Assembly: GCA_902797625.1 (NCBI GenBank)
Contig: CADBTU010000016.1
Coordinates: forward strand, 630-64,629
Origin: an uncultured Bacteroidota bacterium
GTDB taxonomy: Bacteria; Bacteroidota; Bacteroidia; Bacteroidales; WCHB1-69
Direction: 5' to 3'
DNA length: 64,000 nt
The position numbers and the translations under genes were made by a program. Of this stretch, positions 18,558-64,000 are shown in pieces. The notes beneath the pieces were generated by a model. It did not search any database. It was not told the origin of the DNA and saw only the letters and a program-made list of their open reading frames with translations. Every line of letters starts with the position of its first letter. Positions within the stretch are counted from its first letter, which is position 1.

Positions 18558-19516
18558 AAAAATTAAGAGTAGTTTTTATGGGAACCCCAGAATTTGCGGT
18601 TTCAACACTTGATGCTATTCGTAAGAGCGGACATGACGTTGTTTGCGTTGTAACTACCCCTGATAAACCTGCTGGACGTGGACAACAGATACGCTTCTCT
18701 GATGTTAAAAAATATGCCTTGGAACATAATTTACCTCTTCTTCAACCCGAAAAATTGAAAGATGATGGATTTGTTGAAGACCTGCGCGACTATTTAGCAG
18801 ATGTTTTTGTGGTTGTGGCTTTCAGGATGTTGCCAAAATGTGTTTATCAAATTCCACCTTTGGGAACTTTTAATGTACACGCATCACTTCTTCCTCAATA
18901 TCGCGGTGCTGCTCCAATTCAACGCGCCATTATAAACGGGGAAACGAAAACTGGCGTAACAACTTTTCTCTTAGATGAACATACCGATACAGGTGCCATT
19001 TTAAATCAAACTTCGGTTGATATTCAATCCGACGACAACGCTGGTTCTCTTCATGATAAATTGATGATCGCTGGAGCTGAAATAGCTGTTCAAACTCTTG
19101 AACAATTAGCTAATAATTCAGCCTCCCCAAAACCTCAAAACTCTGTCGAACCTCTTAAAAGTGCTCCTAAAATTTTCAAAGATGATATGCATATCAATTG
19201 GAATAATCCTGCTTCTCAAATTCTAAACCTAATACGAGGATTGTCTCCATACCCCGCTGCGTTTTCTATCTTAAAACTTAAAAATGATAATTATAGGCAA
19301 ATTACACTGAAAATTTACGATGCGGAAGTCTCTTCTTCTAAAAGTGATGATAATCCAGGTAAAATTATTGTCGATTCTTCAAAAAAAATGCAAATTTGCA
19401 CCCAAAATTTCAATATTATAGTCAAATCTTTACAAATTGAAGGTAAAAGGCGTATGAATATTGAAGATTTTTTAATCGGATTTCGTTTGGAAAATTACAT
19501 TGATTGTTTATTTTGA
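18554..19516 (+). CDS. fmt: Methionyl-tRNA formyltransferase
   Basis: 320 aa. Has FMGTPEFAV, NVHASLLP.YRGAAPI and ..D.G. motifs. Overlaps ribH by 4 nt. Confidence 0.95.
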   Translation: MKKLRVVFMGTPEFAVSTLDAIRKSGHDVVCVVTTPDKPAGRGQQIRFSDVKKYALEHNLPLLQPEKLKDDGFVEDLRDYLADVFVVVAFRMLPKCVYQIPPLGTFNVHASLLPQYRGAAPIQRAIINGETKTGVTTFLLDEHTDTGAILNQTSVDIQSDDNAGSLHDKLMIAGAEIAVQTLEQLANNSASPKPQNSVEPLKSAPKIFKDDMHINWNNPASQILNLIRGLSPYPAAFSILKLKNDNYRQITLKIYDAEVSSSKSDDNPGKIIVDSSKKMQICTQNFNIIVKSLQIEGKRRMNIEDFLIGFRLENYIDCLF

Positions 19517-19608
19517 TGTAAATACTAATAGTTAATCAGATTAAATATAAACAATATCAACATTTTATCCACAATCAATAAACAATACCTATATTTAACA
19601 AAATTTAC

Positions 19609-19616
19609 TAAATTTG
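19609..19616 (+). promoter_or_regulatory. -7 promoter box (TAAATTTG) for HU gene
   Basis: Exact TAnnTTTG 39 nt upstream of the ATG at 19655. Confidence 0.45.
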
Positions 19617-19654
19617 TGGCTCAAATTAAATACTAACTTTTTAAATCAAAAAAC

Positions 19655-19924
19655 ATGAACAAGAGTGAATTAATTAGTGCAATGGCTGAAAAAGCCAATT
19701 TGACAAAAGTTCAAGCTAAAGCTGCTTTAGAATCTTTCATTGCTTCTACAGAAGAAACTTTGAAAAAAGGTGATAAGATTTCTTTGATCGGATTCGGTAC
19801 ATTCAGCGTAGCTGACCGCAAAGCAAGAACTGGTCACAATCCACAAACTGGCAAAAAAATTAAAATTGCTGCTAAGAAAGTCGTTAAATTCAAAGCTGGT
19901 TCAGCTTTCGACAATATGAAATAA
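19655..19924 (+). CDS. HU-family DNA-binding protein
   Basis: 89 aa. Has MNKSELI, ..GFG.F.V..R.AR.G.NP.TG..I.I.A motifs. Confidence 0.95.
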
Positions 19925-19948
19925 CGAATTTTTTATTCTTTATTTACT

Positions 19949-19975
19949 AAAAGCCCTTGTATAGGGCTTTTTTGT
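19949..19975 (+). terminator. Intrinsic terminator after HU gene
   Basis: AAAGCCCT-TGTAT-AGGGCTTT followed by TTTT. Confidence 0.7.
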
Positions 19976-19981
19976 TATATA

Positions 19982-20683
19982 ATGATGAAAAAGATAGAAG
20001 ATAAAGTATTGAGAAAAAAGTTAGTTGGATATTTGGAAACATTTGTTTCAGATGATCGTAAAGCAACACTTCAAAGAGTTTTGAAAAATAGAACAAGACA
20101 TATCACTGTTGTGCTTGAGGATCTGTATCAAACACAAAACATAAGTGCAGTGCTTAGAACTTGTGATTGTTATGGAATACAAGATGTTCACGTTTTACAA
20201 AATCGCAATGAATTTGAAATACACAAAGACATTAGCATGGGAGCTGATAAATGGTTATCAATAAGTGAGTATAGATTTGACGAGGACACTGAAAATGTAA
20301 AACATTGTATTAACAGTTTGCACGAGAAAGGTTATTTAGTTGCAGCAACTCTTCCAGATGAAAGACAGCGTACAATTTTTGATATTCCTACGGAACAAAA
20401 AGTTGCTTTTCTTTTTGGTACCGAACTTACTGGTTTATCAAATGAGGCCAAAAAATATGCTGATATAAATGTATTAATTCCTATGTATGGTTTTACAGAA
20501 AGTTTCAATATTTCAAATTCTGCTGCAATAATTTTGTCGCATACTTCAGAAAAATTACGCAAATCAAATACCCTGTGGCAACTCTCGGAAGATGAATCTG
20601 AGGAGCTTTATTTTGAGTGGTTACAAAAAAGTGTCAGAAATCCTGATGCTATGATAAGACATTATCTTTCTAAGTTATATTAG
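19982..20683 (+). CDS. trmH: SpoU/TrmH-family tRNA/rRNA 2'-O-methyltransferase (likely tRNA Gm18)
   Basis: 233 aa. Has NISAVLRTCD, FG.E..G.S and SFN(I/V)S.. motifs. Confidence 0.8.
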   Translation: MMKKIEDKVLRKKLVGYLETFVSDDRKATLQRVLKNRTRHITVVLEDLYQTQNISAVLRTCDCYGIQDVHVLQNRNEFEIHKDISMGADKWLSISEYRFDEDTENVKHCINSLHEKGYLVAATLPDERQRTIFDIPTEQKVAFLFGTELTGLSNEAKKYADINVLIPMYGFTESFNISNSAAIILSHTSEKLRKSNTLWQLSEDESEELYFEWLQKSVRNPDAMIRHYLSKLY

Positions 20684-47126: not shown

Positions 47127-48272
47127 TCATCTAAAAAATTGTCTTACTCTTGAGAACACACTTTTTTCGTTTTTTTCAGGTTTTGGTATGAAATTTTCGT
47201 GAGTGCTCAATTTTTCAAGTATTTCTTTTTCTTCTTTGGTAAGGTTTTTTGGTGTCCAAACGTTAATGTTAACAATCAAGTCGCCAATAATGCGGGAGTT
47301 AAGTTGTGGCAACCCTTTACCTTGCAAGCGTAAAATTTGTCCACTTTGAGTTCCAGCAGCAATTTTAAATTTAGCTTTACCAGTTAGGGTCGGGATTTCT
47401 ACAGATGAGCCAAGGGCGGCTTGAGGGATACTAACGTAATAGTTAAGATAGAGATTGTTGCCATCGCGCTCGAATATTTCGTGTTCTTTAACTTTAAAAT
47501 GAACCAACAAGTTGCCATTAATGCCGCCTTTGCGAGTGGCATCGCCTTTGCCGCTGATGGTCATTTGCATTCCGTTATCAACTCCCGCAGGAATGTTGAT
47601 ATTTATAATTTCTTCGCCTTCAACAACACCTTCACCATGACAGTGAGAACATGGTTCTTTGATGATTTCGCCAGTTCCGTGACATTTTTGGCAGGTTGCA
47701 GTTTGTTGAATATATCCAAAAACGCTGCGTTGTTGGCGCACAACGTGCCCACTACCATTGCAATCGGGGCAAGTAGTTACGCTTTGAGGATTATTAGTGC
47801 CTTCGCCGTTGCAATGAGGGCAAGTTACCATTTTACGCACTTTATATTTTTTTTCGGTTGTAGCGGCAACTTCTTCTAAAGTTAGTTCAACGGGAATACG
47901 TCTATCGCCACCGCGTGGAACCCGACGTTGTTGTGTGCCACCAAATCCACTAAATCCGCTAAAACCACCGAATCCACCGCCAAAAATATCTGCAAAATGA
48001 CTGATGATGTCGCCGAGGTCAACCCCTGAAAAGTCTGAAGCTTGGTTGCCCATACCAGCGTGACCAAAACGATCGTAACGCTCTTTTTTCTCAGGATTGC
48101 TCAATACATCGTATGCCTCTGCAGCCTCTTTGAATTTTTCCTCCGCTTCTTTGTCGCCAGGATTTCTGTCAGGATGGTATTTCATAGCCAACTTCCTATA
48201 AGCTTTCTTAATTTCATCGGCTGAAGCTGATTTTCCTACTCCTAAAACCTCATAGTAATCTCGTTTTTCCAT
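47127..48272 (-). CDS. dnaJ: Molecular chaperone DnaJ
   Basis: J domain (YYEVLGV, HPD), G/F region, four CxxCxGxG zinc motifs. Confidence 0.95.
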
Positions 48273-62327: not shown

Positions 62328-62391
62328 AAGAAGTTAACATTAACAAAAAAAGCGGCAAAAAAGCCGCTTTTTTTGTTAATGTTAACTTCTT
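62328..62391. terminator. 29-bp perfect inverted repeat (6-nt loop); bidirectional-type intrinsic terminator after serA
   Basis: AAGAAGTTAACATTAACAAAAAAAGCGGC-AAAAAA-GCCGCTTTTTTTGTTAATGTTAACTTCTT. GC core AGCGGC/GCCGCT flanked by A7/T7. Starts 1 nt after the serA stop. Confidence 0.7.
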
Positions 62392-62392
62392 A

Positions 62393-63310
62393 TTATTTGT
62401 TAACTTGGAATTTTTTATCTCCGTTTACGAAGAAATTCACAATTTGATTAGCAGCTGCAAGACCAGCATTGATGTTAGCTTCGGCTGTTTCAGCACCTTG
62501 TTTTTTAGGAGTTGCGAAGAAACGTTTTTCAAATTTGCTAAATTCATCCATAGCATCTGGAGCGATGTCGGTGCAATATTTAATATCGTCTCTTTCTGCC
62601 ATCAAAGCTATGAGTTCTTCCTCGTTTATAACCTCTTTACGAGCGGTGTTAATCACGCAACCGCCTTTAGGCATAAGACCAACGAGAGCTTTGTTGATAG
62701 ACTTTTTGGTTTGATCGTTAGCAGGAATGTGTAAAGAGATATAATTACAATTTTTGTACATATCTTCCAAAGTGTCAGGAACCACTACGCCTTCAGCTTC
62801 CATATTTTCTTTGGGAACGAAAGGATCGAAAGCCCAAACATCCATACCGAGTGCGCGAGCTTTTTCAGCCACGAGGCGACCAACGTTACCATAAGCTTGG
62901 ATACCAATTTTTTTGCCTTTGAGTTCAGAGCCAGTACCTGGTTTGAACGTATTACGAGCCATATAGACCATCATTCCGAGTGCTAATTCAGCAACTGCGT
63001 TAGAATTTTGACCAGGGGTGTTCATAGCTACAATGTTGTTAGCAGAACAAGCTGCGAGGTCGAGGTTATCGAAGCCGGCACCAGCGCGAACTACAACTTT
63101 TAAATTTTTTGCAGCGTCCACAACTTGCGCAGTAACTTTGTCAGAGCGAACGATTAAGGCGTCAACATCTGCAACTGCTGCGTAGAGTTCTTCAGCTGTT
63201 TCATACTTTTCTAACAAAGCCAATTCATATCCGGCTTTTTCCACGATGGCACGAATGCCGTCAACTGCTGCCTTTGCAAAAGGTTTTTGTGTTGCAACTA
63301 ATATTTTCAT
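62393..63310 (-). CDS. serA: D-3-phosphoglycerate dehydrogenase (short, ~305-aa type) / D-2-hydroxyacid dehydrogenase
   Basis: NAD site GIQAYGNVGR and RAGAGFDN motif. Lies downstream of serC. Confidence 0.8.
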   Translation of the reverse strand: MKILVATQKPFAKAAVDGIRAIVEKAGYELALLEKYETAEELYAAVADVDALIVRSDKVTAQVVDAAKNLKVVVRAGAGFDNLDLAACSANNIVAMNTPGQNSNAVAELALGMMVYMARNTFKPGTGSELKGKKIGIQAYGNVGRLVAEKARALGMDVWAFDPFVPKENMEAEGVVVPDTLEDMYKNCNYISLHIPANDQTKKSINKALVGLMPKGGCVINTARKEVINEEELIALMAERDDIKYCTDIAPDAMDEFSKFEKRFFATPKKQGAETAEANINAGLAAANQIVNFFVNGDKKFQVNK

Positions 63311-63332
63311 AAAAGTTTATCTGTTTATTTGT

Positions 63333-63730
63333 TTATTTATTTGTTTGTTTGTTTTCTGATTGTTTATTCGTGATTGCTGACTTCTTCTTAATGAGTTTAT
63401 CTTATTTGTGATCTTTTAACAACTTGTTTCTCAAGTTGCTCATCTGTTTGTTGTCAATATAGCCAAAATCCAAAGACAACATCAGCGAACAATATACTTC
63501 AATTGCTGAACCGAAAGCTATCTCCGTGAAATGCATCTGTTTTTTTAATGAGGAACGTGAAGTTTTTCAGCTATATTCAAAACCCACTGAAGTCGCCGAT
63601 CTGCGAATTTGATCTGTTAGGTTATATCTTTCTTTTTGAGGGAAAGAGTCTATTATTGGATAAATCTCTTAAAAAACTGTCTGGACAATTGCCACACATC
63701 AATTTTTTCAAAAGAGAAGGAATAATCCAT
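63333..63730 (-). pseudogene. Decayed four-helix-bundle protein gene (23S rRNA intervening-sequence protein / Avd-like family)
   Basis: The minus strand reads in successive frames: MDYSFSFEKIDVWQLSRQFFK | EIYPIIDSFPQKERYNLTDQIRRSATSVGF | NIAE | TSRSSLKKQMHFTEIAFGSAIEVYCSLMLSLDFGYIDNKQMSNLRNKLLKDHK* | DKLIKKKSAITNKQSENKQTNK*. Joined, this is a full-length family-like sequence. There are three frame breaks (about 63670, 63578, 63564) and one TAA (63402-63404). Confidence 0.7.
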
Positions 63731-63731
63731 A

Positions 63732-63763
63732 AACGAATCAACAAATCAACGAATTAACGAATC
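63732..63763 (-). repeat. Tandem 8-mer x4 (minus strand GATTCGTT/AATTCGTT/GATTTGTT/GATTCGTT) between serC stop and pseudogene ATG
   Basis: Direct reading of the plus strand: AACGAATC AACAAATC AACGAATT AACGAATC. Confidence 0.75.
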
Positions 63764-63766
63764 ATA

Positions 63767-64000
63767 TTACTTGTTTTTCTTCTCAAATTCCTGCATACAA
63801 GCTACAAGAGCTTCCACGTCTTCTATTGTACAAGCGTTATAAAGGGAAGCGCGGAAACCACCAACAGAACGGTGTCCTTTAATGCCAACCATACCGCATT
63901 CTTTAGCGTATGCCATGAAAGCATCTTGTTTGTCTTCATAACCAGGAGCCATAACCCAGCAATGGTTCATGATAGAACGGTCTTCTTTATTAGCAACTGT
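63767..64000 (-). CDS. serC: Phosphoserine aminotransferase, C-terminal 77 codons (gene continues beyond window end)
   Basis: The frame is open to position 64000 (..[56 protein letters not shown]..). GHRSVGG(F/M)RAS.YNA is the SerC C-terminal signature. Confidence 0.85.

Follow-up and report, generated by a model that had tools for sequence, protein, structure and literature searches.

The window analysed here is a 64,000-nucleotide stretch of contig CADBTU010000016.1 (assembly GCA_902797625.1) from an uncultured bacterium of the Bacteroidales lineage WCHB1-69. At one end of it, the genes serC and serA lie on the minus strand, separated by a spacer that runs from the serC stop (63767) to the serA ATG (63310). 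The spacer, 63311-63766, is 456 bp long and its only sizeable open reading frame (ORF) is one of 69 aa on the plus strand (63548-63757), both as given in the original prediction, which had proposed that a decayed gene of the four-helix-bundle (4HB) family known from intervening sequences (IVSs) of 23S rRNA is hidden on the minus strand. We find such a pseudogene, placed between two arms of short tandem repeats. The parts of this cassette and its two neighbours, in the order of transcription, are:

63767..64000, minus strand: 3' end of serC, which extends past the window edge; its stop codon adjoins the cassette
63732..63764, minus strand: 5' arm, tandem 8-mers GATTCGTT x4.1 on the sense strand (Tandem Repeats Finder), directly upstream of the pseudogene ATG
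63317..63730, minus strand: frameshifted PF05635/TIGR02436 4HB pseudogene, with its ATG at 63730 and its stop at 63319-63317
63356..63379, minus strand: the 3' arm segment that shows complementarity to the 5' arm (CAGCAATCACGAATAAACAATCAG), from duplex prediction, inside the region coding for the C-terminal tail
63315..63354, minus strand: distal tandem array at the 3' side, AAATAAAC x5 in sense orientation (Tandem Repeats Finder and intact relatives), drifted
62393..63310, minus strand: serA, a 305-aa protein of the D-3-phosphoglycerate dehydrogenase type (Pfam 2-Hacid_dh and 2-Hacid_dh_C), the downstream gene of the operon

Reading the minus strand jointly in three frames recovers the family pattern, as had been described. 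The frame-corrected translation matches PF05635 with E=2e-29 (102.3 bits, cut-off 33.8) and TIGR02436 with E=3e-27 (94.8 bits, cut-off 24); uncorrected single-frame pieces alone reach E ~1e-7 against PF05635. A six-frame profile search of the whole 64-kb window gave no 4HB signal outside 63317-63730, indicating that the match is not a chance one, and tblastn likewise found no second 4HB copy in the window. After frame correction the polar motif Q..RR...S...N.AE.....S ... E is present and all A1/A3-invariant columns are kept; the N-I-A-E of the motif is legible only in a shifted frame. Among PDB sequences, the corrected protein matches 2GSC (E=9e-15) and 2RLD. The fold was modelled on the nearest intact homolog, P0006, and not on the pseudogene. 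The model is a four-helix bundle (pLDDT 93.3; helices at residues 11-28, 32-58, 62-88 and 94-134) with a TM-score of 0.95 to 2GSC and 0.86 to 2RLD (BT_0352), followed by bAvd. Profiles, PDB matches and homolog fold thus bear out a decayed gene of the 23S-rRNA-IVS-protein/Avd-like 4HB family.

The likeness to Avd raises the question whether the gene is a stranded avd, the remnant of a diversity-generating retroelement (DGR). Structures of bAvd are among the fold matches, and the corrected protein scores weakly against the Avd models PF22296 (bAvd; 24 bits) and NF033474 (27 bits). These scores are far under the respective cut-offs of 40 and 80 bits. The pseudogene is flanked by serC and serA, all close homologs sit at the same housekeeping junction, and neither a reverse transcriptase (RT) nor long direct repeats of the template/variable (TR/VR) type were found beside the window pseudogene. 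Given the sub-cut-off scores and the lack of RT or TR/VR near the window copy, we rejected membership in Avd and consider a DGR origin extremely improbable.

Lesions in the pseudogene were called by aligning the spacer to seven intact relatives of the same locus (L005, L013, L017, L081-L083 and L034), together with a coordinate check. The earlier count of three frame breaks and one in-frame TAA does not hold in this alignment, where the damage consists of four 1-nt indels:

63663..63671, minus strand: indel 1, a 1-nt deletion at ~63668 (AAG/AG), beside the T6 run 63671-63676
63579..63585, minus strand: indel 2, a 1-nt insertion in GGGTTTT, from the alignment to relatives
63563..63567, minus strand: indel 3, a 1-nt deletion in the A5 run, from the same alignment
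63413..63425, minus strand: indel 4, a 1-nt insertion (GTTGTTAAAAG) in or adjoining an A4 run, from the same alignment

Indels 2 and 3 jointly put about 5 codons out of frame and create a TGA. The TAA at 63402-63404 appears to be in frame because of the shift caused by indel 4. The true tail, ITNKINSLRRSQQSRINNQKTNKQINKQINR, lies in the other frame after indel 4 and ends at the stop 63319-63317, 6 nt ahead of the serA ATG; the tail fragment matches the family profile with E=0.028. Four 1-nt edits restore an uninterrupted ORF of 137 aa. In the window copy the coding sequence is interrupted, and its two longest remaining pieces have 25 and 44 aa.

The original prediction had placed the breaks near homopolymers, and indels 1-3 do lie beside T6, in GGGTTTT and in A5. 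Could the gene be alive, with indels that arose as errors of sequencing or assembly at homopolymers, or through slippage that can revert (phase variation)? Three of the four fall in or beside T6, G3T4, A5 or A4 runs, the window copy has no substitution-type lesion, and all family-invariant residues are kept in the corrected protein. To restore the frame, four separate events of alternating sign within ~260 bp would be needed. The other large ORFs of the window, up to 1277 aa, are intact and show no frameshift signs. In the suspiciously overlapping or abutting ORF pairs that were checked, each ORF matches its own Pfam family, different from that of its partner, which indicates separate genes; for four ORFs (AA_kinase, BacA, YgbB and TruB_N) the match covers essentially the full length. 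Both serA and serC align full length to relatives, and independent assemblies also hold decayed copies at serC-serA (L022, L035 and L074). Four indels in ~260 bp, with the remaining ORFs of the window clean, therefore make real decay most likely; assembly error is an unlikely source of the indels, and a living gene is very improbable.

We compared the junction in 76 related Bacteroidales loci in which both genes were found. The spacer measures 4-66 nt in 34 of them, 76-138 nt in 16, 259 nt in one and 321-536 nt in 25. By content, 34/76 spacers are empty, 14/76, all in the 76-138-nt class, hold a hairpin of tandem units with no ORF, and 25/76 are occupied by a 4HB gene. In every one of the 25 long spacers the 4HB gene is on the operon strand, in agreement with the proposed co-oriented insertion between serC and serA, and most of these genes are intact; the refuting case, in which the spacer of relatives would be the same but non-coding, therefore fails. 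The original prediction had considered a copy that splits this operon unusual, a claim contradicted by the 25 occupied relatives and the 14 others with ORF-less hairpins. The occupants belong to three divergent subfamilies of PF05635: type A, which resembles the window copy (L005, L013, L017, L034 and others), type B, with the motif SIGANIEEASGAQS (17 loci), and type C (L036 and L051). Decayed copies occur in L022 (frameshift), L035 (internal deletion) and L074 (truncated), with possible early stops in L005 and L051, so that decay affects 4-6 of 26 serC-serA copies. The three closest database homologs on long contigs (P0006, P0009 and P0012) are also located between Aminotran_5 (serC) and 2-Hacid_dh (serA), and the genes beyond serC and serA are not alike in these loci. 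Over 444 kb of related loci, all 4HB matches are in the serC-serA spacer except one (L077, downstream of serA). The serC-serA junction is evidently a hotspot for 4HB cassettes in this clade.

Locus L077 (EPI_MAG_00100) carries type-B-like 4HB genes on either side of serA, at 25-417 and 1390-1749. The second copy lies between serA and a DUF1015-type gene (judged by eye), so that two junctions of one operon are filled. Some of the spacers scored as empty keep short tandem units. The 56-nt spacer of L058 contains AATCAACGATTAAACAAATCAACAAACAAACGAATCAAG, resembling a type A 3' arm plus tail; the spacers of L038 and L039-L042 are 28-40 nt long, that of L038 containing CTAAAC x3. Probably these units are what remains, on one side only, of cassettes that were lost.

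In each occupied spacer the serC stop is followed, ahead of the 4HB start, by 3-5 tandem units, each 7-9 nt long; the reverse complements of these units are located at or past the 4HB stop. All intact relatives share this arm-ORF-arm build, which supports the earlier suggestion that the gene is carried on a small inserted cassette. The units vary from cassette to cassette with the pairing kept, as in TTAAGAAAC / TTTCTTAAC, CAGTGAAC / GTTCACAG, ATTAAAT / ATTTAAT and GAGTAAA / TTTACTC. In type A cassettes the 3' arm is within the low-complexity C-terminal tail of the ORF. Duplexes were scanned with 60/110-nt flanks and their energies compared with those of shuffles; the 5'/3' duplexes of the cassettes have z-scores of -1.5 to -9.5, mostly beyond -3, with type A the weakest. 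The 5' arm of the window and the TGTTGAAY arrays of intact type A cassettes are homologous, and the window duplex (63734-63763 with 63356-63379) is predicted at -28.3 kcal/mol, compared with -18.8 kcal/mol for shuffles. Complementarity to the 5' units has been lost in the distal array, 63315-63354. In the ORF-less hairpins the units include AGTTAGC, AGTGAAC, TTGGCTA and TAGTAAT, and the stems are 17-25 bp with z-scores of -3.2 to -7.1. No Rfam family matched the stems or the ORF-less hairpins. Among 68 non-redundant cassettes, the mean duplex energy is -31.0 kcal/mol for a cassette's own arms and -19.2 kcal/mol (sd 8.0) for non-self arms, and for 39 of the 68 the own 3' arm is among the best-scoring 10%, where about 7 would be expected. 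At the level of sequence, this difference amounts to covariation measured alignment-free.

The 3' flanks of four loci (L045, L047, L048 and L049) contain composite arms, in which the outer units are those of one cassette type and the inner units are the cassette's own: the outer units are TTTTTAA/TTAAAAA (the L046 type) or CTTAAC (the L049 type), and the inner ones TTTACTC and TTTCACA. This arrangement suggests a new cassette nested in an older hairpin, or unit turnover from inside. In L090, L091 and L092 the cassettes are 99.7-100% identical in nucleotide sequence and have unequal numbers of AGGTTAT-type units in their 5' arms (~110-135 nt flanks), which points to rapid unit slippage. In the type A copies of L005 and of protein P0001 (106 aa), a TAA replaces the GAA of relatives (…DQIN*ITNKINALK…) and the ~30-aa tail that encodes the 3' arm is lost; this tail may be dispensable for the type A protein.

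Cassettes of the same build, with more distant homologs as their ORFs, are present in other operons. In L084-89 the cassette is between rmlB-like and rmlA-like genes, and in L090-93 between a DegT aminotransferase and a sugar transferase gene, where the copy number of the AGGTTAT array varies by contig. A metagenome scan with a type-B-only profile gave 80 loci from many environments. Most of the scorable loci have upstream tandem heptamers, such as GAATTAC, GAATTAG, GGTAAGT and GGGATGA, and the z-scores of their 5'/3' duplexes reach -10. In 37 of 39 loci the upstream neighbour has the orientation of the cassette gene (p=1.4e-4, for an expected share of 0.7), and in 30 of 39 both neighbours do; the gaps are tiny. 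Locus L134 is 86-88% identical to L116/L114 over exactly the arm-ORF-arm unit (~440 nt), bounded by CAATTAAGAATTAAGAG and CTCTTAATTCTTAATTG, and the flanks are unrelated: by eye, from translations, L134 is between an apparent RND adaptor and an RND pump, and L116/L114 between apparent ABC-2 permeases. In both L134 and L116 the upstream TAA is inside the first unit and the downstream ATG 2-3 nt past the last. This comparison is the clearest evidence, as far as sequences can tell, that arm-ORF-arm is a discrete unit.

Type-B-like cassettes in L102, L103, L117, L149 and others occupy junctions of very different operons, again by eye from translations. Such junctions include those of a monooxygenase-like with an acyl-CoA-ligase-like gene, of the Der GTPase with a membrane protein, and of ETF-QO with EtfB.

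A discrete unit with inverted ends (CAATTAAGAATTAAGAG...CTCTTAATTCTTAATTG) would also be expected if the arms were terminal inverted repeats (TIRs) of a transposon-like DNA element, comparable without its ORF to a miniature inverted-repeat transposable element (MITE), and moved in trans by an enzyme, pairing in RNA being irrelevant. The existence of ORF-less forms, the composite or nested arms in L045, L048 and L049 and the symmetry of G.U and A.C mismatches in the arms are in line with such an element. We observed no target-site duplication when empty, hairpin-only and occupied junctions were compared, and the cassette encodes no transposase. The arm sequences are widely unlike between cassettes, and therefore do not provide a common transposase site. 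The strict co-orientation (37/39 metagenome loci, 26/26 serC-serA copies) is unexpected for an element indifferent to transcription. We regard a DNA transposon as unlikely.

The intact cassette ORFs are under purifying selection, with dN/dS of 0.03-0.10 in unsaturated pairs. On the serA tree the spacer states are scattered, and type A, type B, hairpin-only and empty spacers all occur at a serA dS of ~0.2; more distant Bacteroidales are mostly empty, with spacers of 4-40 nt. Between L046 and L049 the flanks are 88-100% identical (mostly 96-100%), the spacer only 34-82%, and the borders of the divergence are sharp, at the serC stop and the serA ATG. The cassettes of L012 and L055 differ by a dS of 0.145, compared with 0.56 for serA, and the cassette of L084 is 100% identical to those of L085-89, where the flanks are 94.5% and 84.5% identical. 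By these distances, some cassettes are younger than their own flanks. In L045 and L047 the identical tract extends into serC, which looks like ordinary homologous recombination. As judged from these alleles, the serC-serA junction is repeatedly colonised, swapped and emptied by cassettes.

Purifying selection and the location exactly at cistron junctions might also be explained by a host regulatory device, in which an intercistronic hairpin and an RNA- or DNA-binding 4HB protein tune serC against serA, the window copy being a lost regulator. Similar paired repeats at proB/proA and pdhA/pdhB of Geobacter metallireducens were proposed as global-regulator sites (PMC2700814). A regulator is difficult to reconcile with the differences in cassette presence, absence and type between the closest relatives (serA dS ~0.2), with cassettes of one build in operons that are unrelated (rml, DegT-sugar transferase, RND pump, ABC-2 permease and ETF), with decay in 4-6 of 26 copies, or with the spacers of only 4-40 nt in distant Bacteroidales. 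A host device is, to our mind, improbable.

The cassette sits exactly between the serC stop and the serA start in the orientation of the operon, and no Bacteroidetes-type -7 box (TAnnTTTG) is present on the sense strand of the window spacer. We interpret the window feature, with a probability of roughly 75%, as a dead, promoter-less cassette consisting of a 5' tandem arm, a PF05635 ORF and a complementary 3' arm, a decaying hitchhiker of the operon. Such a cassette would be a selfish element relying on the host operon for its transcription. Once transcribed, its arms would pair to a 20-45-bp helix, looping out the ORF and bringing the serC stop near the serA start. Keeping stop and start close in this way, we propose, means that the insertion does little harm. 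The tandem units would allow several pairing registers, so that unit slippage could leave the helix intact. By analogy with the Coxiella 23S rRNA IVS, the helix would likely be a substrate of RNase III. The Avd-like protein would serve the element, binding its own arms or RNA or aiding copying, and not serine synthesis. Gain, decay, a hairpin-only remnant and an empty site would form a cycle, of which the window copy may represent one stage: its ORF is dead, its arms are eroding, and serA would rely on read-through of ~450 nt of mostly untranslated RNA.

Several points weigh against this interpretation. The window stem is weak (z -2.7), and type A stems are imperfect overall (z -1.5 to -3.2). 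Mismatches in the arms are symmetric (G.U 51, A.C 61), which gives no evidence for RNA-level over DNA-level selection on pairing and would be compatible with a DNA hairpin or TIR-type mechanism. Ordinary homologous recombination through the conserved serC and serA can explain part of the turnover. Homopolymers contain or adjoin three of the four indels, and there is no further lesion, the same pattern that sequencing errors would leave. For RNase III cleavage and looping-out we extrapolate from the IVSs of rRNA, the role of the 4HB protein is a guess prompted by the partnership of Avd with reverse transcriptase, and the means of cassette movement is something we infer.

The surroundings of the cassette in the window are otherwise unremarkable. 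The SerC C-termini of 72 related loci align with the translation of 63767..64000, and in L081-L083 the gene upstream is Aminotran_5. SerA is 93-96% identical to SerA of many metagenome-assembled genomes of uncultured rumen Bacteroidales, and a PorV in the window is consistent with Bacteroidota. Two nucleotides past the serA stop there is an inverted repeat of 29 bp, perfect and with a loop of 6 nt (AAGAAGTTAACATTAACAAAAAAAGCGGC / GCCGCTTTTTTTGTTAATGTTAACTTCTT, 62328-62391), which resembles an intrinsic terminator working in both directions, with A/T-rich extensions of unusual length; Rfam gave only sub-threshold generic or miRNA-like hairpin matches for it. A gap of 466 bp between co-oriented genes (19516-19982) was considered as a second cassette and rejected, as it holds an ordinary gene for an 89-aa HU-type DNA-binding protein (19656-19925, plus strand), followed by a terminator-like hairpin. 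Apart from the two flanking arrays, Tandem Repeats Finder detected no tandem-unit arms in the 64-kb window. The minus-strand ORF 47127-48272 contains a 9-nt tandem repeat, CCACCAAAT x4.6 at 47938-47978, for which no inverted partner was observed.

By itself, the window feature is an ordinary pseudogene of a common small family, and its context is more useful. The class that it belongs to, 4HB cassettes that are bounded by hairpins and ride on operons, with a hotspot at serC-serA, appears to be a widespread and so far undescribed variant of the IVS. This context connects rRNA IVSs, the many 'four helix bundle protein' genes that stand as orphans in Bacteroidota and other phyla, and the unexplained tandem-repeat hairpins between genes of an operon; the three are commonly treated as separate and appear to be states of a single element type. 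4HB genes have been noted inside cas operons (PMC3936711) and between gmk and nadD in Flavobacterium columnare (PMC5524665). A full-text literature search, with subscription journals outside its coverage, found no description of hairpin-bounded 4HB cassettes in operons, and none of PMC3936711, PMC5524665 and PMC2700814 links the arms, the ORF and the rRNA IVS. The ORF is strongly selected, appears to need host transcription and moves with the arms as a discrete unit, which bears on the purpose of the IVS and its ORF, still called unclear in the 2016 Coxiella study (PMC4990558). Annotation pipelines miss the arms, the ORF-less hairpins and the decayed copies, and such inserts may alter the coupling of neighbouring operon genes. 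Natural empty, hairpin-only and occupied alleles at one defined locus are available for experiment.

We offer tentatively, as possible and still doubtful, a broader view in which 23S IVSs are the best-known landing sites of a much larger and widespread class of transposase-less cassettes, mostly located at operon stop/start junctions. The 4HB protein would be the element's own arm-recognising factor for copying or maintenance, possibly acting with a reverse transcriptase as Avd does in DGRs, and the ORF-less hairpins, including the Geobacter 'paired sites', would be non-autonomous remnants. If this were true, cassettes would settle wherever a transcript tolerates an extra stem-loop, at the tips of rRNA helices or at operon junctions.

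Among known proteins, XCC0516 (PDB 2GSC) and BT_0352 (PDB 2RLD), annotated as 'S23 ribosomal protein family', share family and fold with the cassette protein; these two are intact, unlike the window copy, a pseudogene. A homopentameric ring is known from the literature for 2GSC and bAvd. Avd, the accessory protein of DGRs, is a basic four-helix bundle that binds nucleic acid and the reverse transcriptase (PDB 4DWL and 8UBE). The cassette protein is a related four-helix bundle; unlike Avd, it stays under the Avd cut-offs, has no RT or TR/VR nearby and occurs in another genomic setting.

Among known repeats, the ORF-less hairpins resemble, going by the published description, the 'global regulator binding sites' of Geobacter metallireducens, paired sets of 3-5 tandem 7-9-nt repeats on opposite strands between consecutive genes of operons, for example proB/proA and pdhA/pdhB (Aklujkar et al. 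2009, PMC2700814). In contrast to the cassettes, the Geobacter pairs were read as protein-binding sites, with no link to 4HB genes (PMC2700814). MITEs and the palindromes of repetitive extragenic palindrome/bacterial interspersed mosaic elements (REP/BIME) resemble the hairpins in being short, ORF-less, located between co-transcribed genes and variably present among relatives. The arms here differ from them in being built of tandem short units whose sequence is element-specific, and no target-site duplication was seen; unlike a MITE, the full-length cassette encodes a 4HB protein and not a transposase. Measured against TIR transposons and MITEs as classes, the cassettes have inverted ends, show no visible target-site duplication and carry no transposase.

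As an element, the cassette has a parallel in the ORF-containing rRNA IVS. Such sequences are reportedly present in the 23S rRNA of Coxiella burnetii, Leptospira and Xanthomonas, in an account going back to Ralph and McClelland in 1993. No rRNA match was found in the spacer region or in 29 related loci, nor any rRNA context in the 20 metagenomic relatives' loci checked. The Coxiella IVS is 428 nt long, has a 28-bp terminal stem and has been shown to be excised by RNase III; three tandem heptamers (GACAGAT x3) lie just upstream of the S23p start, their number varies between strains, and the ORF is decaying (PMC4990558, Warrier et al. 2016). The cassettes agree with this type of element in size (~430-490 nt), in a PF05635 (S23p) ORF looped by a helix of complementary ends, in tandem 7-8-nt repeats of variable copy number directly upstream of the ORF's start codon, in a decay-prone ORF and in dependence on host transcription. 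Complementary ends of at least 20 bp enclosing the ORF are clear in relatives (z to -9.5) and partly kept in the window. The differences are that the host site here is a junction of protein-coding cistrons, not helix 25 or 45 of 23S rRNA, that the intact cassettes are clearly under purifying selection, and that the type A 3' arm is within the coding tail. To all appearances, then, the cassette lacks the rRNA location that defines an ORF-containing rRNA IVS but works like one.

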